NCBI RefSeq assembly: GCF_963921235.1
Contig: NC_086097.1
Coordinates: 71,798,001-71,862,000, forward strand
Reading direction: 5' to 3'
Source: Mobula hypostoma
Taxonomy: Eukaryota
DNA length: 64,000 bases
Shown: positions 1-31,599 of the stretch, piece by piece
How the letters are laid out: each line of letters begins with the position of its first letter
How positions within the stretch are numbered: the first letter of the stretch is position 1
Made by a program: the position numbers and the translations under genes
Notes under the pieces: model-generated
Database searches by the model: none
Told to the model about the DNA's origin: nothing
Seen by the model: the letters and a program-made list of their open reading frames with translations, nothing else

Positions 1-2835
1 ATAGAAGTCGGTAAATGGTACCATGGCAACTATTGAAGTTAGTTCATCTACTGATCAAGCTGCATATTACTGCACTGAGAATTCCTGAGCTGCCTTTGAA
101 TTCAAAAAGCTGTAAGGGAGACCTTCTGCAGACTGTAAACATACATTGCAGGGAATCTGTAAGGAATTCAGAAGAATTTTGTTTGCTTAATCATCTTCTG
201 TATGAAATTTAGCAGACATCTAAAATAAAGTGAGACAGTATCATTAATCAGCTTGAATGGAGATTATGACACATAGAATTTGAGGACACATTGATGACAT
301 TTAACAACCAATCAAATTTCATCACCTTCCTCCATGACAACAGATGCTGACCTTTACAGCTTCCTATTGAGCTTTCATGCGTTACCTGCAGAAATTAACA
401 TTAACTGTTCCACACTGCTATTAATGTCACCTGGGAATAGAGATTCATGAATTCATTTATTATACAGACGAGAGACCCATTTTACACTCTAAGCACAGGA
501 GGGTTGCTTCAAAGAGCTGGTATTTTTGGAAGCTGGCTGAACTACCTATGTGGTTGAGGGATGGCTGCAAGCGACAGAATTAGAAATGTCACTGGCCACA
601 TTGAAAGACAACTGAGGACATCTTCAAGGAGAAACCTTGAGGCTGAACGTTCATGATTTTCACAGGCTGCGTATAACAAAGAACCAAATGGCTGATTGAA
701 ATATTTGAAATGAGAAGCATGACGCCAAAAAAGGGTATTAATTTCCGTCTGACATTATCTGCAAAGAACCAGTATAATCTAATTCTTCTCATTATGCCTA
801 ACAAATGGATTAATATTATAATATTAAAGTCTCAAATTTCCTTGAAACCGGCAGCAAAGTAAGATTGTAAAAGTGGTGTACTGCTTATTTTCACCACAGG
901 AGGTGTAGGTAATTTTGCTGAACTTCTCTCCAGGCCAAGATTTTATCATTTTTTCTTTATATAGGATATTTTAAAATAGGATAAGGAGTAGAACATCAGA
1001 CCCCTCAAACCTGTCCCACCATCCTACTTGTTCATGGCTTAATTCAGCTGCCCTCAACTTTCCTCTTCTCTGATAAGTTCACCTTCAATCCTGCTCTCAG
1101 GGAACTCTCCATTGAAACCCTGGTCCTCCTCTTAATATAATAACTACTCCCACAGCACATAATGACAAGTGGATCTAAGACTCATGAATTCACAGCAATT
1201 CCAAATCGAACTCTCACTTTTTTGGCTCAAGTTCAACATTCTGCTTGCAGCCCAACCTCATTTTCTGTTTTCTTAAGACTGATGTTATTTTCTGGCTTCA
1301 GTACAGTTGGACAAATGCTGGCATAACCTTGTGGAAATTTTCATTTAACAGTGGTCTATGATTACACATTAATTAGAGGATTTATCATTTAGTCGCCTAT
1401 CACATTACATTAAGTCAAAGACTAGTGTGACATCTGCTAAGAATTATGGTGGCCAATATCAGATGGCACGACTAGGATTCAGGAAAGGTCATGTGTTGGC
1501 TGTGGCATGAGCTAATTTAAGCAGGGAGATGTTTATCATTGCTATAAACGCTGTCCACAATCTTTCAAATACAACAGAGGAGTAAGGAAGTAAAGAAAAT
1601 GATGCAAGGAAAGGTTTCAGATACCAAGCTGGCACCATTTGAAAGACACAACTTTGGAAGATTGCCATGAAAAACTGAATGGTCACCAGCAGGAAAATAG
1701 ATTGAGTTACAAGAACTTTAATTGGGTAGTGCCAATTTTAACTCTTTCTTCCTAAAGCAGATTCCAGTTGTGCTGATCTTAACTCCTCCAAGTCTTCCCT
1801 CTGTTGTCTGGTGCAGAAAATGAGAAGGATACTTCTTCCAGCCTCAGTACAACACGTCAGTTCCAGTTACGCTATGCATGAAGAGCTCCAGTATAATATT
1901 CCTGAGTTGCAGAGAAGTAACAGTAGACCGCTGAGTGACAAGAGGTCAATAGAAAATCTTTTGTTTAATGGATTCACCTAGAGCAAGCATATCTTGATGT
2001 GCATTGTTGGAGGGAGGGGACAGGAGACTGGGAATTGTGTATAGAAGAGTATTTTTCATTTTCTGGCAGCTCATGAAAAGGAAAAGGTTTTGACAGCTTG
2101 CTTCTGCCCAGAGGACTGCAGAACTGTTGGGAGTGAGGGAGTGGCTCCAAGGCATCTATTCTCACCTCACTTTGGACACAAGGGATGAGCCTACTGTTTT
2201 GTTTACTAAATCAACGCTTCAAGAATTGATTTAGAATTTCCATAGTTCACACAAATAACAGGAGAGCTTCATGTCTTAATAACAATATATTTATGTCTTA
2301 TATTAGTCATGGCTGTTGTTAGAGGGCAAGTTGTTCTTTTAAGAACACATACATAGTCTGTGTCCGACCACACACAGTACAGAGGAGGTTTGAGGAGCTA
2401 GACATCACACGTTAGCTCTCCCCCACAGGTCCTTTCCACAAGTCGCTCCTTGCGTTCCATACAACATGCCCTTTCTGCAGCAAGACCAAGAGCATTTGAG
2501 AGGAACAAGCACAGCTTCCACTGAGTTGACAACCTAGCAGTAATAACTAATGTCTGTCTCAGAGTGCATCCCAGAACCCTTAAGGTGTTGACAATGAACT
2601 AGGTCAGTTACCAAAACATATCTTTTCACACTTCTTTGTGCATTTCAGTGGGAGGTGGGAGATCTCTGCTGCAGATCCAAGGGCAGCACTCGGTAGTAAA
2701 GCTGGAAGGGCCATGCAGTGAAATCCCACACACCTGTACCCAGGTTGCATGCCTACATTTCAGTGAGAGGCCGGATGACTGGCTGTTTTAATTATTATAG
2801 TAGTTGCATCCAAAACCCAAATGTCCTTCCATATT

Positions 2836-3573
2836 CAATTCAATTCAAGTTTAATTGTCATTCAATCATACATGAATACTCATGAATACAGCCAAACAAG
2901 ACCGTGTTATTCTGGGGTCAAGGTGCAAAACACAGTGCCAACAGTCACACACAGCACAAAGCACACATAACATGTATAAGATAGAAAGATACAGCCACTC
3001 AGTAAAAGAGACCAAACTCAAGCTATCAAACACTACCGAAATCAGCAGACGCCCATTACAGAGCTTGTCTTCTGCCAAGCAAGCACTGGAGGGTGGGGTG
3101 TGAGGGTGCAGTACCAACACCAGCCTGGATGCCACACCACACCGCCCCAGGTGGAGCCTATTAGCTCCAACATCTCTCCACTGACGGCTGTATACAGGCC
3201 ACACGCAGCTTGGGGCCTAGTCCTTGCTATGACTGAGGCCATGCAGTTCCCCTGCCGTCTGCCCCTGCTCTCAGTCAACAAATCAATGAATCGAACTTGC
3301 GGCATTCCACAATTACAATGTCCAAAATGGTCTTGTGATCATAAGAAAAGCAATCAAAACAGTCACTTGCCATTAGGTTGTAAGCCTCCTTTGACTTCAG
3401 CAGCGCCACGTTGCATAGCTCCTTCATTTTCTCCACCAGTGAGCAACTCGCTGACTGGGTAGACCTGCAGTTCCTAGTATTCAGAAGGATCTTGTGATCA
3501 TTAAAAATACGTTTACGTACAACAGTAGCACCTTTTGGTGACCCCGCAGAAGCCGCTGCGACCGAACCTGCCG
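2836..3573 (-). mobile_element. Unclassified short non-autonomous retroposon (GC-rich head, LINE-like tail)
   Basis: On minus it begins in a GC-rich ATGGCGGCAGG.. context and ends ...GAATGACAATTAAAC(TTGAA)n. CCATATT lies at both flanks (2829-2835, 3574-3580), a possible TSD. No RT/EN motifs. Confidence 0.5.
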
Positions 3574-10425: not shown

Positions 10426-13400
10426 TTCATTTACTTGCAGGCATACCCAAAAAATCCATAACAGACTAGTGACCATAAAGAATAATTGAAAGACAGCAAC
10501 AGGTCAGGCATTCAACTAGTGTGAAAAAGACAACGAACTGTGCAAATACAAAAAGAAAGAAATAATAGTGATAAATAAATAAGCAATAAATATCAAGAAC
10601 ATCAGATGAAGAGTCATTGAAAATGGGTTCATGGTTGTGGGAACTGTTACTGAACCTGGTGGTGTGAGTAATGAGACTCCTGTACCTTCATCTTGATGAC
10701 AGAAGTGAGAAGAAAGCATGACCTGGGTGGTGGAGGTCCCTGATGATAGATGCTGCTTTCCTGCAACAACACTTCATGTCGATGAGCTCAGTGGTGGGGA
10801 GGGCTTTACCTGTGATGGACTGGGCCGTATCTACTACTTTTTGTAGGATTTTCCATTCAAGGGCATTGGTGTTTCCATAGGAGGCTGTGATCCAGCCAGT
10901 CCACTGCACATCTATAGGAGTTTGCCAAAAGTTTAGTTGCCATGCTGAATTTTCCCAAACTCCTAAGGAAGTACAGGCGCTGCCATGCTTTCTTTGTAAT
11001 TGCACTCACATGCTGGGCCCAGGACAGGTCCTCCAAAATAATAACACCGAGGAATTTAAAGTTGCTGACCCTCTCAATATCTGATCCTCTGATGAGGACT
11101 AGCTCATGGACCTCTAGTTTTCTCCTCCTGAACTCAATACTCAGCTCCTTGGTCTTGTTGACATTGAAAGGTTGTGTTTGTGACACCACTTGGCCAGATT
11201 TTCAACCTCCCTCCTACATGCTGATTCGTCACCACCTTTAATTCAGCCGACGTCGGTGCTGTCATCAGCAAACTTGAATATAGCATTGGAGCTGTGCTTA
11301 GCCTCACAATCGTTAGTGTAAACCGAGTAGAGCAGGGGGCTAAGCTCACAGCCTTGTGGTGCACCTGTGCTGATGGACATTATTGTGAATCCGAACATGA
11401 TTGGGGTCTGAAAGTAAGAGAATCGAGTATCCAATTGCACAAGGTGGTTTTGAGGCTAAGGTCTTGAAGATAATTGATTAGTTTTGAGGGGATGATGGTA
11501 TTGAATGTTGAGATATAGTTGATAAGGAGCATCCTGACATATGCATCTTTGCTATGCAGATGTTCCAGGGTAGAGAGAAGAACCAATGAGAAGGCAGCTG
11601 CTGAGGACCTTTTGCTCTTGTTGGCAAATTGAAGCAGATCCATGTCACTTCTCAGGCAGTAGTTTCATCACCAACCCCTCAAAACATTTCATCATTGTGG
11701 ATGTAAATGATACTGGATGATAGTCACTGAGGCAGGTTACCACATTCTTCTTAGGCACCGGTATAATTGAAACCTGCCTGAAGCAGGTTGGTACCTTAGA
11801 CTGCCAAAGTGAGAGGTTAAAAATCTCAGTGAATATTCCAGCCAGTTGATCAGTACAGATAAATAATACTTTACTAGGTGCCCCATCCGGGCCAGAAGCT
11901 TTTTGTGGATTCACACTCTGAAGGCTGCGCACATACGGCCCTCAGAGACTGAAGTCACAGGGTCATCAGGGGCTATGGGATTTTGTGATGATTCCACCAT
12001 ATTTTGCTGGTCAAAGTGAGCATAGAAGGCATTGAGCTCATCTGGAAGAGAAGCCTTGAATATTGAATAGGTCCCCACTCATCTCCCTCTAAGGCATTGA
12101 AAGTCTTGTGAACTTAGTAGTTTTTTCTTTGGTGGGTAATTATACTTTTAATTATCTTTACTGTTCTAATAACTTAGTCTAAGCCTGGTGCAAAGAATGT
12201 ATGTGTCTCACCCTCACTCTTTAATAGTTTAAAAATGCTGTATGTCAGGCAACTTTCTTCCAAACCCTTTCCATGCTTTGTTAAAGTTGCTCACTGTCTG
12301 TAGCTCTTTCCAGTCATGAAAGTAATTTTTTAAAGAGTTCATTTAATGAAGAAACTGAATGGTTGCTCCTTTATCAAGTGAAGTCTATAATATAACAGTC
12401 ACACAGTGGATATGATACTACTTGTTTTTTTTTTAATGAGGTGGAAAGGACCAGCCATCATTTTGCAAAAGAAGGCTTTGTCAAAAGATATTAGCTTTCA
12501 GTCGTAGACCTTCTTAAATTGATAGAGGGAGTCTAGTACCACTCAAGGCATCGAGATTACAAGTCTAATGACCCCATAATTAGCAATTTTAAAATGGAAT
12601 TTGTGACTTGGTCTTGCCTTTGAACAAGTGAATGGTTGATAATATGTTCCCAAGAGTGATTTCCGTGAAGTGTACAACATGATTTTATAAGTGAACAATT
12701 GGAGCCACAGCCTCTCACTACCTAGAAGTAGTGCAATTAACTCAAAGCCCCATCACACAATTTCTCTCCAACTAGGAAACTCTGTTCTATCGAATGGTTT
12801 ATTTATTAGGTATAATTGTGGACAACAAGATTCACAGTGGAGTTTTACAGTTTGGTGTCCATAATCAAGCTCTATTGATCAGTAGCAATGTGTCTTATGC
12901 ACAGTACTTTGCAATAAATAATGACAGCTATTAAATGTGAAATGCTATAAACAAGCTGAAGTCTTATTGAGAAAATGCCACTCTGACAAGCGAAATGGCA
13001 TTTTGATATTTTCTCATTGTTTAATGCCCGGAGTCTGTGTATCTGAGTTCGTAAGCTATGCTATGTCTCACTGAAAATATCTCTTCCAGTTTAGCAAGGA
13101 AATGAGTGAGAATTGCTCAAAGGTATATACTATTTTTCAAGCTCAGATGAAAATTCTGATTTAGAGCTTTTGCTTTAAGTCCAGTTATTCAAGTAGAACA
13201 TTTCAAATTTACTAGGTGCTCGTTTTGGATTTATATGCTGCAGCTCTGGCAATAAAACCCAGCTATTGAATAGATGGGACTGTCTACCCAACTGAAATTC
13301 CAAATAATTCTGAGAAATTTTTTATAATACAGACATACATTTCATCCTAAAGTAAAACAGAGAGACAAGGAATACCTAAAATCGATAAAAATCTCAGCAG

Positions 13401-26880: not shown

Positions 26881-27585
26881 AAGACTGAAAGAATTAGGCC
26901 ATGAATTTTGTCAGACCTCTTGATATCCAAAATCCATCTGCTACAATATTCAGTTTGAACGAGGTTGCTTGCATTCTGCGCTGTTGTATCAATCACTCAC
27001 AATTTCTGAAGAATCTCCATCATTATTTTTTCTACTTTTTAAATTCTGTTTCTAATTCTACATCCAAATGGCTAAATCATAAACTATTTTTGACTGAAAC
27101 TCCATCTCTGTATCTAGCCTTAAAAATACATCTGTCTCTGTTTTAAGAAGTGCCTTACTAGGATGTAGCAAGTCATCCTGATATATATTTCACACACTTG
27201 TGACAAGCTGCTTTCTCTTGGTATAAAGTAAAATCAAGTGACATAGGCAGTAACAGGGCCTCAATTCCAGATGAGCTCAATGCCTTCTATGCTCACTTTG
27301 ACTATCAAAACATGGCGGAGCTGTCACAAACTCCCACAGCCCCTGATGATTCTATGATTTCACTCTCTGAGATTGATGTGCGAGCAGCCTTCAGGAGGGT
27401 GAATCCACAAAAGGCATTCGGCCCAGACAGGGTACCTGACCAAGTACAAAAGACCTGCACTGATCAACAGGCTGGAGTGTTCATCTATCTGACATACTCA
27501 CCTGCTTCAAGGCTTCAATTATATTGGTGGTTAAGAAGAACATGGTAACTTGCCTCATTGACAATCACCCAGTAGCACTTACATC

Positions 27586-27783
27586 TGTTATCTTACTTCT
27601 ATTTAATCATCCCATGGCTTAACAACAAAGAATGATATTCTGGAGAATTAGAGAACTTTTATTTACAGAAATAAACAAACACATCTTAATCCCACCACAT
27701 GCTGATATATTCTGGCAAACGCCACGTATGCTCAGTGTTGTCCAGTTAGGTACTGGCACATCATTGCATGTGATATCACCACA
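27586..27783 (-). repeat. 3' LTR of Gypsy element 2
   Basis: Direct repeat of 29839-30037; adjacent PPT at 27784-27796. Confidence 0.95.
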
Positions 27784-28254
27784 TCTCCCCTTCCTTAAAA
27801 AGAAAAAATAAAGAACAACATTAATCAAAGCAAATACATAATTCAACAAGCCTCAATCAGTCTCTCTGTGGGTTTATTTGTTATTATTTACGTTTTGTCT
27901 CGTCTGCATCAGTTAACTGAATCTCTGAAGTTGGCTCTTCGCTATCTGGGCCATGACTCTTCTTGTGCTTGTTCTTTTTCTTCTTCTTTTCTGCTTGAAT
28001 CTTTTCTTATGTATCTCAACTAGACTTTTTGGTATGCTCTCACATGTCTCCTGGTTAGAATCTGGAATTTCAGGTAAGCAGTTCATGCTATCCTCCTCAG
28101 TAATCTGCTTCCCTGCTTCTGTTTGGACTGTATCTTTCCTAATTCCTTCCACTTCCATTTATAATGAAATACGGATCTTCTTTGCTTCATCTAATTCACT
28201 CATTAACTGTGTAATCTCTTTTTCATGCTGAGACTTCATCATTTCAATAAAACT

Positions 28255-28560
28255 TCTCAATTCCGTTACTTGAGCTTTCACTTCTTCCTTATACTGTGCC
28301 CACCGTGAGCGTTCTTGCTCTAGTCGGTGATTAGACTGAATCTCATAATCTCTCAGTGTCTCTTTCATTATTGCTTGCATTGAAGCAACCTCCTCTTGCC
28401 ATTACTTTTTCATATCATCAATTGCCTCCTGTTTGGTCGTCTCAGACACTGCAGCTACTGCTTTTATATTCTCCAGGTCAGCATTTGCCTCCATGAGCTG
28501 GACCTACAGTCAAGTTACATCACCTGCTGACTGTAATGCAACATTCTGTCGCTTCAGCTC
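28255..28560 (-). pseudogene. RABEP1: Captured Rabaptin-5 (RABEP1-like) N-terminal coiled-coil fragment, in frame with the protease
   Basis: Manual translation: [99 protein letters not shown]. It aligns nearly gap-free with human RABEP1 as I recall it (DLKRQNAVLQAAQDDLGHLRTQLWEAQAEMENIKAIATVSENTKQEAIDEVKRQWREEVASLQAVMKETVRDYEHQFHLRLEQERTQWAQYRES), about 60% identity by eye. Not database-verified. Confidence 0.85.
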
Positions 28561-28968
28561 TCTGTCACTATCCAAGACAAAAATTCTTTTCACCAAACTC
28601 AGTCTTTCACAGGCAGATACACCAAGTATTGATTGTACATTTTTTGGCATGACCGAAAATGAAAGCGTGTGCACAGTATTTTTGTGTGATACTTTTGCCA
28701 CACATGTTCCTTTAACTGGAATGTCTGCACCTGAATAATCAGTCACTTTAATATTTTTCTGATGTAACTTTGGTCTTGGCTTTAAAGCTTTAAACTCAGA
28801 TTCTGCAAGAACATTTACTTGCGCTCCAGTATCAAACTTAAACAGAATATTGTTTTGATTCACTTGCAACAGAACAGTCCAGTCATTCTTACTTTGTTTA
28901 TTTTCGCAAAGCACATCTATATAAAATTCCTCTCGTTCATCTTCAAGCACAGCATTTACTTGTTTCAT
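28561..28968 (-). pseudogene. Gypsy aspartic protease
   Basis: ILFKFDTGAQVNVL active site (D at 28831-28833) and QSILGVSACERLSLVKRI C-terminal motif. Confidence 0.9.
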
Positions 28969-29734
28969 TTTATTTTCCTTCTTTCTACTTCTACAACAGC
29001 ATGAAAAATGATTAATATTACCGCAGTTACAGCAAATTTTGCCATATGCGAAACACTGATTTGGACGGTGTTCCCATGCACAGCAATCACATGACCTTTT
29101 TTTTCAAATGCCGACTTGCTCTCCGTCGGTTTTGTTGACGTATTATGATATTTCTTGATATATTCGCGGTTTTTTAAAAGCATTTACATTGTAGTTTTCA
29201 ACAAGAAGCTCTTCAGACTGTGACATTACGTTCTCAGAAGCTTTGCAGAGCGCAAAAGCTTGTTCAAAATTTAAATCTTGCTCTCTCAACAGCATTTCTC
29301 ATAGAGCATTATTCTGAATGCCACAAACTATTCTACCTTTAATCAGAGAGTCCATAAGCAATCCAAACTCGCACATTCTACTACGCTTTCTTAACTCCGT
29401 ATCATACTGATCAATTGTTTCAGCAGCCTTCTGCGCACATGTGAAGAATTTGTATCACTCATACGTTAAATTACACCTAGGTATACAAAATACTTCAAAT
29501 CTGTCCATTATTGACTTTAAATTGAAATTTTCTCCATCTTCAAAGACAAAATTATATATCTTTACTGCGTCATTTCTGATTACGTGGAGCAGGATTGCAG
29601 CTTTGGTTTTGTCCAGATTTCTATCAGCTTCGATGGCTGACAAATATATCTTAAACTGTTGCTTGAATATCCTCCAATTCTCAGTTACATTCCCAGTCAG
29701 CTACAATTTTTTGTGGGAGTTGTAAACCTTCCAT
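28969..29734 (-). pseudogene. Gypsy gag with two zinc knuckles (decayed)
   Basis: MEGLQ..LTGNVTENWRIFKQQF; NLTYE*YKFF..Q..ETIDQY.TELRK..CEFG..SLIKGRIVCGI..LLREQDLN..A..LCKASE; knuckles CDCCAWEHRPNQC and CCNCGNINHFSCCC. A few stops and homopolymer frameshifts. Confidence 0.9.
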
Positions 29735-29825
29735 ATTACCGATTACCATTCGATCTTGTTTCTTCTTTTTTTCGATTATCTTCGATTCTCGATTCTCGAC
29801 TCTCCCGTATTACTCTTCCAGAACT

Positions 29826-29838
29826 ACTTCTGACACCA
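29826..29838 (-). promoter_or_regulatory. Primer-binding site complementary to the tRNA-Leu 3' end
   Basis: TGGTGTCAGAAGT immediately after the 5' LTR is the complement of vertebrate tRNA-Leu ...ACTTCTGACACCA. Confidence 0.85.
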
Positions 29839-30037
29839 TGTTATATTACTTCTGTTTAAACATTCTGTGGTTTAACAACAAAGAATCCTACTCTGGAAAA
29901 ATTAGAGATCTTTTATTTACAGAAATAAACAAACACATCTTAACCCCGCCACATTCTGAAACATTCTGGCAAACCCCGCGCATGCTCAGTGCTGTCTAAT
30001 CAAGTACTGGCACATCATTGCACATGATATCACCACA
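29839..30037 (-). repeat. 5' LTR of Gypsy element 2
   Basis: TGTGGTG...TAACA on minus, followed by the PBS. Confidence 0.95.
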
Positions 30038-31599
30038 ACATCCACAGCGAATAAGTGTTTTAGAGGTTGGTGATGAACTCCTACCCAAGAAATGACTTGG
30101 ATCCGCTCCAGTTTGCCAACCAGAGCAACAAGTCCACAGCAGATGCCATCTCATTGGTTCTTCACTAAACTCTGCAACATTGGGACAGCAAAGATGTATA
30201 CATAAGGATGCTGTTTATCCACTGCAAGTCAGCCATCAGCCCCTCAAAACTAATCAGTACACTTCAAGACCTTGGCCCCAATACCTCCTTGTGCAGATGG
30301 ATACTGTATTTCCTCACTTGCAGATCCTAGCCAGTTTGGATTGTCAACAACATCTCGTCCACAATCTCCATCAACATAGATGCACCACAAGACTGTGTGC
30401 TTAGCCCCCTTCTCTGATTGCTTCACATTTATGACTGTGTGGCGAAGCGCAGCTCCAATGACATATTCCAGTTTGCTGATGACACCACTGCATATAGGAG
30501 GGAAATTGAAAATCTGACCAAGTAGTGCCACAAAAACAACCTCTCACTCAATGTCAGCAACACCAAGGAGCTGATTATTAACTTCAGGAGAAGGAAACAA
30601 GATGTCCACGAGCTAATCCTTATTGAAGGATCAAAGGTGGAGAGAGTCAGCAACTTTAAATTCCTCAGTGTTAGCTTTTCCTGAGCACAGGATGTAAGTG
30701 CAATTATGAAGAAAGCACAGCAGTGCTTCCGCTTCCTTAGTAGTTTGCAGAGATCCAGCATGACGTCTAAAACTTTGATAAACTTCTTTAGATGTGTAGT
30801 GCAATCAACTGGTTACATCAGAGCCTGGTATAGAAACACCAATACCCTTGAACAGAAAATCCTCCAAAAAGTAGAGTATATGGCCTAGTCATAGCCATAA
30901 AGCCATAGCCACAGGTAGAGTATACGACCCAGTCATAGCCAAATAGCCATAGCCACAGGTAAAGCCATCCCCACCACTGAGCACATCTACATGGAGGAAA
31001 AGCAGCATCCATCATCACAGACCCCCACCACCCAGACCATGCTCTCTTCTTGCTGCTGTCATCAGGGAGAAGGTACAGGAGCCTCAGGACTCACACCACC
31101 AGGTTCAAGAACAGTCATTACCCATCAGCTATCTTGCTCCATCATTGAGATGTTCCCACAGTCTATAAACTGATTTTCAAGGACTCTCCGTCACATGTTC
31201 TCAATACTTGTTGTTTACTTATTTGTTATTATTATTTATTTATTTTTGTATTTGAACAGCTCATTGTCTTTTGCACACTAGTTGAATGCCCAAGTTGCTG
31301 TAGTCTTTCATTGATTCCATTATGGTTATTATTCTATTATGGATCTATTGAGTATGCTTGCAAGAAAATGAATCTCAGGGTTGTACAAAGTTTGTATATA
31401 GTGACATCTAAGTATTTTGACAATAAATTCATTTTGAACTTTTGCTACTTCCTTAATTCACAGTCATTCTCAACCTGCGAATATCAATAGGCTTTCATAT
31501 GACCAGTTTGTCAGTAAATCTTGAAGAAGCCTGTTGAGTATACTATTTCTGGTATGTGATCACTTTAATAATTAACTGCAAAGTAACAAGCAATGAGGG

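Follow-up and report, generated by a model that had tools for sequence, protein, structure and literature searches.

The window analysed here, 64,000 nucleotides of the ray Mobula hypostoma (RefSeq assembly GCF_963921235.1, contig NC_086097.1, positions 71,798,001 to 71,862,000), contains a 2452-bp long terminal repeat (LTR) element that lies on the minus strand and runs from window position 30037 to 27586. The element is very probably one old and decayed copy of a helper-dependent, Gypsy-type family in which most of pol has been replaced, via template switching, by spliced fragments of host mRNA. The fragments are traced to RABEP1, encoding Rabaptin-5, and to SH3KBP1, encoding CIN85. All the cis signals were kept, as were the element's own Gag and protease, and the element multiplied after a single capture. 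A preliminary description of this DNA had proposed the in-frame transduction of host RABEP1 by an LTR element, and the proposal is upheld by the identity with host exons, by the intron-less joint between those exons and by the junction shared among copies.

The Gag-protease frame and its host-derived cargo

The main frame, read through from 29700 to 27913, has 8 internal stops and a final stop. Over the first 381 residues it shares 55% identity with residues 9–389 of P0122, a Gypsy polyprotein of 1285 amino acids (aa) whose Pfam order is protease, RVT_1, RT_RNaseH, Integrase_H2C2 and rve, and the two CCHC knuckles and the DTG motif are in place in this alignment. The homology to P0122 stops at the junction of protease and RABEP1. 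In the read-through Pfam detects gag-asp_proteas (E 1.9e-6), and Rabaptin, PF03528, scores 133.6 bits (E 1.2e-38) where the cut-off is 26.7 bits; no Pfam match to reverse transcriptase (RT), RNase H or the integrase core was found there. Without these three the element is a non-autonomous derivative of Ty3/Gypsy type and not an autonomous member. A frame with gag, two zinc knuckles and a DTG protease, split by stops, had been reported in the preliminary description, and the translation, the domain matches and the alignment with P0122 agree with it. The start assigned to that frame, ATG 29734, is out of frame in this copy, as (29734 − 29700) mod 3 = 1. The reported absence of RT, RNase H and integrase is right for RT, RNase H and the integrase core, but the 3′ end still holds what is left of the C-terminal tail of integrase; the part of integrase retained by the family is the last ~45 codons. 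Similarly, the read-through does reach 27913, where the frame had been said to end, but its last ~30 residues are a frameshifted reading within an A-run and not the native end. A related copy continues from there into the integrase tail.

Beyond the junction the element carries the DNA of host exons. Positions 28561–28362 match one exon of the host RABEP1 gene on contig C71 at 94.6% over 203 nt, and positions 28363–28276 match the next RABEP1 exon, which is ~9 kb away, at 92.0% over 88 nt. The two pieces meet exactly at the exon borders, and the ~9-kb intron is absent. At the protein level the cargo is RABEP1 aa 61–151, part of the N-terminal coiled-coil region. A protein search gave 778 matches, with ray RABEP1 among the best. 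The cargo is thus RABEP1 and not a coiled coil of a general kind. The peptide after the junction had been read as the N-terminal coiled coil of Rabaptin-5. The gene is indeed RABEP1, and the peptide quoted at the time stops exactly at RABEP1 aa 151; only aa 61–151 are present, however, and the coil that follows is that of SH3KBP1. The Pfam Rabaptin match (residues 376–535) exceeds the true RABEP1 part (381–472) by ~60 residues and runs into the SH3KBP1 coil. The host genome has one Rabaptin gene with Rab5-binding exons, that on C71. The Rab5-binding domain PF09311 is found only in this gene, and the element, which keeps aa 61–151 only, encodes no complete effector with that domain, the Rabex-5-binding C2-1 and a full Rab4-binding N-terminus. 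A database protein of an electric ray that is named RABEP1 isoform X9 (P0010) carries Pfam RVT_1 besides its Rabaptin domains, and is probably a gene model that absorbed a retroelement.

The similarity to RABEP1 ends inside the second exon, and the next ~50 residues are encoded by three joined exons for the C-terminal coiled coil of SH3KBP1/CIN85 and not by Rabaptin. A protein search with this tail gave 12 matches out of 57 candidates, all of which fit SH3KBP1: 11 bear that name, and the other one has no name but shares their Pfam domains. The peptide EEVKAQV...MEVEGIRK aligns to ~619–666 of the 671-aa ray SH3KBP1. In the DNA, the window piece matches the host SH3KBP1 on contig C18 at 95.2% for the end of an exon, 92.5% for the whole next exon and 96.0% for the start of the last exon, with no introns.

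Among 30 fetched copies of the family, 25 belong to a common type in which SH3KBP1 ends at ...MEVE and RABEP1 then resumes exactly where it was interrupted. The resumed RABEP1 (RELTDLRRRLSEGQG) is the next 50 nt of the same exon and is followed by GDKVRIQDKRNTW...RSYMVQTEEGAVLR, which is the integrase C-terminal tail as found in P0122 and in an autonomous relative of the same genome. The plan of the family is LTR, gag, knuckles, protease, RABEP1, SH3KBP1, RABEP1, integrase tail, stop, polypurine tract (PPT) and LTR, with the coding parts in a single frame. The window copy is of a minority type (4 of the 30), in which SH3KBP1 extends to ...EGIRK and joins the integrase tail at the point used by a sibling family, with a 33-nt deletion and with an extra 176 nt (27940–28115). 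This 176-nt piece is read in frame into the integrase tail in a related copy. A 190-nt marker for it gave 94 candidates, and the 40 scored are 91–100% identical, the window's own included, which makes at least 40 copies. A phmmer search for relatives of the piece among 1.84 billion representatives gave one weak, irrelevant algal match, and nothing usable came from the protein atlas. The piece may derive from the transcript of a third host gene. Two runs taken by guess as RNA have contigs (one of 1123 nt) that cover 28007–28119 at depths of 312 and 721 and then continue into unrelated sequence.

The element had been described as complete and integrated, with two LTRs, a primer-binding site (PBS), a PPT and the target-site duplication (TSD) ACATC, and this is borne out by the repeats, the motifs, the flanks and an empty-site paralogue (Table 1). 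The LTRs are direct repeats that align over 138 nt at 88% and over 62 nt at 82% (overall 171/198 = 86.4%). The PBS TGGTGTCAGAAGTAGTTC adjoins the 5′ LTR and the purine tract adjoins the 3′ LTR. The primer is putatively tRNA-Leu; no tRNA genes were found in the window by ARAGORN. The element is nested in a long interspersed nuclear element (LINE) RT fragment (window 27204–27585 and 30038–30550), which is CR1/L2-like by eye only, and a second copy of the host LINE lies 16 kb away in the window, at 11517–11926. The upstream flank of the element aligns to this LINE paralogue up to 11704, and the downstream flank aligns from 11700. The two alignments overlap at 11700–11704, so the paralogue holds one copy of the 5-mer with no element and represents an empty site. 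It is as near to an empty site as one genome can offer.

Table 1. Features of the LTR element, in window positions.
Feature	Position	Strand	Remarks
TSD, upstream copy, ACATC on + strand	30038..30042	.	single copy at empty-site paralogue, 11700-11704
5′ LTR, 199 nt, TGTGG...AACA	29839..30037	-	86.4% identical to 3′ LTR
PBS, TGTGTCAG-type: TGGTGTCAGAAGTAGTTC	29821..29838	-	same motif and place in other copies and in sibling family
Gag-protease frame, 4 stops	28562..29700	-	55% identity to Gypsy polyprotein, homology ending at junction
Zinc knuckles (CCHC)	29053-29091 and 28996-29034	-	within gag-protease frame
Protease DTG	28825-28833	-	Pfam protease 28603-28869
RABEP1 cargo: exon A (from ~2nd-5th base) and first 88 nt of exon B, aa 61-151	28285..28561	-	
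SH3KBP1 (CIN85) cargo: exon end, whole exon and start of last exon	28135..28287	-	C-terminal coiled coil, aa ~620-666 of 671
Short integrase-tail remnant (DTVQTE...)	28116..28134	-	inherited with the SH3KBP1/integrase junction of sibling family
Extra 176-nt piece	27940..28115	-	in 4/30 sampled copies; itself multi-copy
Integrase C-terminal tail remnant to native pol stop	27843..27939	-	shifted frames in window copy; from comparison with L046 and end of P0122
PPT AAGGAAGGGGAGA	27784..27796	-	common to autonomous relative
3′ LTR	27586..27783	-	
TSD, downstream copy, ACATC	27581..27585	.	

Copies, relatives and derivatives in the same genome

A 601-nt query across the protease/RABEP1 joint gave 722 first-look candidates, of which 40 were scored. 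These loci match the query at 88–100%, where 100% is the window itself, and are found on many contigs. The protease/RABEP1 joint is identical in all 30 loci that were fetched, and both RABEP1 pieces and both SH3KBP1 pieces are present in each of the 30. The joints were also counted by an exact-pattern search with up to 3 mismatches, using the reversed 31-mer as the control. The 31-mer across protease and RABEP1 has 57 matches against 0 for its control, and the 31-mer across RABEP1 and SH3KBP1 has 135 against 0; the higher count of the latter fits derivatives without protease. Both LTRs lie inside the fetched 3.5 kb in 15 loci. Exact 5-bp TSDs, different from one another, flank 10 of these; in 3 the repeats are off by one or two bases, 1 has no match and 1 shares an LTR with its neighbour. 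The possibility that the junction is unique to this locus, raised in the preliminary description, is thus answered by its presence at 30 of 30 loci, by the 57 matches against none and by the different TSDs. In addition, the protease/RABEP1 joint is bridged by a DNA contig (X7 record 30, covering window 28367–28670) of a public run whose label names another organism.

The LTR pairs are 86.4–95.0% identical (median 92.0%), with the window copy the most diverged. The copies are old. The activity of the family is historical. Contigs were compared from three runs guessed to be RNA and from one DNA run, no listed run being on record as RNA. None of the listed pieces from the guessed-RNA contigs bridges the protease/RABEP1 joint with at least 31 letters on each side, a result that is uninformative on expression. 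One of them (X15 record 5) has ~22 letters on one side of the joint. Another (X17 record 10) matches the RABEP1 part 28279–28561 exactly and then diverges from the window as a host mRNA would.

Autonomous relatives with gag, protease, RT, RNase H and integrase are plentiful in the genome, as found by a search guided by P0122, and have the same LTR ends and PPT as the window element. A full-length autonomous relative, L046, is 74–76% identical from the LTR to the protease and again at the 3′ end, and the similarity stops at the joint. An autonomous-type fragment that adjoins one RABEP1-type copy is 90% identical in the protease, and at the site of the joint its sequence is ...ACACAGAG/TCAGAA. 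At the locus L025 (C2:106284767-106288317, sense ~2293-3200), the 3′ LTR of a RABEP1-type copy also serves the element that follows, an internally deleted one of autonomous type with a PBS, a leader, a protease and then the start of RT; the arrangement is tandem or recombinant.

A sibling non-autonomous family was also identified, in which pol is replaced by four joined SH3KBP1 exons (aa ~521/540–667) lying in frame between the protease and the integrase tail. For instance, the sibling copy L047 (C21:167526400-167531400, 998-3314) has a stop-free frame of 563 codons, without the first ~36 gag codons, that proceeds through gag, protease, a 34-nt RT remnant, the four SH3KBP1 exons (95–98% identical to the host) and the integrase tail to the native stop. 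The 34-mer across the 5′ joint of the sibling has 53 matches against 0 for the control. Another sibling copy, L050 (C9:59592300-59595500), has a different 5′ joint and the same 3′ joint, which defines two subtypes. A search with the whole of SH3KBP1 returned 7414 candidates, and the best 67 all lie at the C-terminal ~150 residues, 41 of them stop-free, in what is a biased sample. The window type has the SH3KBP1/integrase joint of the sibling; the SH3KBP1 piece of the RABEP1 family therefore most likely came from sibling RNA and not from the gene. A further derivative of the window subtype, L051 (C59:6828900-6832100, ~667-2794), lacks ~413 nt that comprise the protease and the start of RABEP1. 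It has an open frame of 289 codons leading from the knuckles through RABEP1, SH3KBP1 and the 176-nt piece to the integrase tail, and it is marked by the 190-nt sequence found in at least 40 copies, with that of the window counted.

Formation of the joints and spread of the family

All four cargo joints of the common type have 4–8 nt of microhomology, namely AGAG between the protease end and RABEP1, GAAG between RABEP1 and SH3KBP1, AGTGGAA where SH3KBP1 returns to RABEP1, and CAAGGAGA between RABEP1 and the integrase tail. Such short stretches common to both partners are the signature expected of RT template switching. We propose that inside a particle RT switched, by copy-choice, between the element RNA and a co-packaged RABEP1 mRNA, and that it also switched onto SH3KBP1 sequence, probably in the RNA of a sibling already carrying it. 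Since the element has neither RT nor integrase, it would have been copied and inserted by the enzymes of its autonomous relatives. Its RNA would be packaged, reverse-transcribed and integrated in trans, and the family would be a parasite of its own parent lineage. Only in-frame products are proposed to have spread, and a frame open to the native pol stop would have mattered. In the less-decayed copies, RABEP1 and the integrase tail are linked by one continuous translation. The frame is kept at every joint or deletion examined, at least 8 in copies of three types, for which the chance expectation is (1/3)^8. The guess that we prefer is that the coiled coils may act as an oligomerising spacer behind the protease, standing in for pol; in this position a parallel coiled coil could hold two chains together.

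Several observations weigh against this reading. No exact parent or helper was found, and the best full-length relative, the one that was fetched, is 74–76% identical. Decay has left the 30 copies with 4 in-frame stops and 5 frameshifting indels at the median, and the sole clean one is a fragment of 229 codons. The open frames might reflect RNA stability rather than a role of the protein, and the pairwise comparison of sampled copies gives no sign of purifying selection on the cargo. Finally, the protease/RABEP1 joint lies 1–5 nt from the start of a host exon with a tandem cag/aag acceptor, and such a position is not predicted by random switching.

Selection was estimated by pairwise NG86 ratios of nonsynonymous to synonymous change (dN/dS) with two out-of-frame controls, a blunt measure, as most differences are decay after insertion. 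The dN/dS of the RABEP1 cargo is 0.74 with controls of 0.55 and 0.60, and that of the SH3KBP1 piece is 0.72 with controls of 0.30 and 0.96. For gag and protease the value is 0.49 with controls of 0.65 and 0.72, a weak signal of constraint. A test for dN/dS below 1 on the cargo had been suggested in the preliminary description, and the values of 0.74 and 0.72, set against their controls, give no sign of constraint. Nor does the substitution pattern lend support to the functions suggested there, which were tethering of Gag particles to endosomes and release of a dominant-negative Rab-binding fragment. The 139-codon cargo is stop-free in 9 of the 30 copies.

The cargo might nevertheless have been selected for a function, with its coiled coils multimerising the protease or Gag, or bringing particles to endosomes by pairing with the host Rabaptin-5 and CIN85, to the advantage of the defective element in its use of the helper's enzymes. 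This is compatible with an origin by template switching and differs on the reason for the spread; we regard it as doubtful. The proteins of RABEP1 and SH3KBP1 self-associate on endosomal membranes. In each of two related lineages a coiled coil of host origin lies in frame in the same place, between protease and integrase tail, and the SH3KBP1 coiled coil is in 30 of 30 RABEP1-type copies. The uniform frame-keeping at the joints and deletions points the same way, but RNA surveillance alone can explain it. A single-sequence AlphaFold model of the window's protease and cargo read-through gives a continuous helix at query residues 168–245, across the RABEP1/SH3KBP1 joint, with a predicted local distance difference test (pLDDT) score of ~84–95; the mean pLDDT of the model is 59.7, however, with the protease part unreliable and the cargo helices alone confident. 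Both source proteins are endocytic or endosomal adaptors, and the N-terminal region of Rabaptin-5 mediates Rab4 binding (PMC4102244), yet only a 91-residue fragment of RABEP1 is present. Neither cargo piece has a signal of purifying selection, and the protease-less derivative spread too. A shade more doubtful still is the wider claim that a ray Gypsy lineage repeatedly swapped its polymerase for endosomal-adaptor coiled coils (CIN85, then Rabaptin-5 with CIN85) because the protein works, multimerising or docking onto the cell's Rabaptin-5/CIN85 scaffolds on endosomes and so out-competing the helper for particles. Were it true, the element would have exchanged pol for a module of host origin that serves in targeting or assembly.

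The position of the first joint also invites an explanation by splicing, as in the classical model of oncogene capture: an element lay upstream of RABEP1 exon A, a read-through transcript was spliced from a cryptic donor at the protease end to the acceptor of that exon, and the 3′ joints alone were made by template switching. The start of the cargo is 1–5 nt from the 5′ border of an exon internal to the host gene, without intron sequence, as a splice would produce, and the host acceptor is the tandem ..cag/aag site. However, ...ACACAGAG/TCAGAA is what two sequences of autonomous type have at this point (the slash marks the joint), with no usable GT donor in register, and the nearest GT with either of the tandem acceptors does not give the observed joint. 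The shared 4-nt AGAG accounts for the joint, and the other three joints lie inside exons, at microhomologies. A splice origin of the first joint is possible but less likely than template switching, and we consider the scenario as a whole improbable. Far less credible, almost to the point of dismissal, is that a processed pseudogene of RABEP1, made by a LINE, inserted into an LTR element and the composite was then copied, that the likeness is that of chance coiled coils, or that a single locus was misassembled. LINE RT fragments are abundant and flank the element, as the pseudogene would have it. Yet the cargo has no hallmark of a later insertion, which had been held up as the contrary sign: it comes from inside the mRNA, has neither a poly-A tail nor a TSD of its own, and ends at in-frame microhomology joints. 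Chance likeness does not give DNA that is 92–95% identical to the host gene and joined precisely at the exon borders. An artefact of one locus is at odds with joints found on many contigs, with 57 and 135 matches and none for the controls, and with the contig from another organism's run that also bridges the protease/RABEP1 joint. Replacement of pol by template switching onto host mRNA in a helper-dependent element thus remains our preferred reading.

Comparison with known captures of host sequence

The best-known retroelements that captured host mRNA are tumour retroviruses, a few endogenous retroviruses (ERVs) and maize Bs1, with one or few copies each. The ray family presents the whole process of capture fixed in a vertebrate genome, with an exact splice joint, four microhomology joints, an in-frame composite of two genes and more than 100 copies. 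That co-packaged RNAs recombined repeatedly is recorded in its sibling, recombinant and protease-less derivatives. The family provides a natural data set on how defective LTR elements parasitise their parents, and on whether they gain from an open frame or from a coiled coil that follows the protease. In annotation, the copies can be mistaken for paralogues or pseudogenes of RABEP1 or SH3KBP1. The preliminary description knew of no family like a Gag-protease-Rabaptin chimera, and in the open-access literature searched no description of an LTR family carrying Rabaptin or SH3KBP1 was found.

The closest analogue is Bs1 of maize, an element of very low copy number whose chimeric open reading frame is now a host-expressed gene. 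According to PMC13317346, Bs1 is an LTR element that has no replication enzymes of its own and combines segments of three host genes in one hybrid frame; it is thus like the ray element in lacking replication enzymes and in having several host-gene segments fused in frame with element sequence. Unlike the plant element, the ray element has a vertebrate host, is Gypsy-type and carries coiled-coil fragments of two endocytic adaptors exactly between protease and integrase tail. The ray family also has at least 135 copies, with sibling and derivative families, and gives no evidence of domestication.

In acutely transforming retroviruses with gag-onc fusions, spliced host cDNA replaces the replicative genes in frame with gag, and the viruses are defective and helper-dependent. 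Their joints arise by read-through or splicing together with RT template switching. They differ from the ray family in being exogenous Retroviridae that carry growth-control genes and are selected in tumours, and not germline families of more than 100 fixed copies. The cargo of the ray element, in contrast, is a pair of coiled coils without a catalytic or signalling domain.

Crocodilian ERVs captured host mRNAs, those of KIT-ligand and of nectin3, the latter replacing env, and were then retrotransposed (PMC4299795). They are alike in being vertebrate germline retroelements that gained host mRNA at the cost of a viral gene and then multiplied, and they differ in carrying whole host open reading frames, in having six nectin3 insertions and in the evidence of purifying selection (PMC4299795). 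The ray family is Gypsy-type, has fragments of two genes fused to Gag and protease, exists in far more copies and has no selection signal on the cargo.

Non-autonomous LTR elements moved in trans include mouse ETn, moved by MusD, and the plant LARD, TRIM and BARE-2 elements. BARE-2 is named in PMC13317346. These elements keep the LTRs, PBS and PPT of the partner, have the coding region replaced and are copied by the partner's enzymes, as is proposed for the ray family. They differ in that the interior is non-coding or of untraced origin, or that gag alone is affected, whereas in the ray family the interior can be recognised as host exons joined in frame, and gag and protease were retained.

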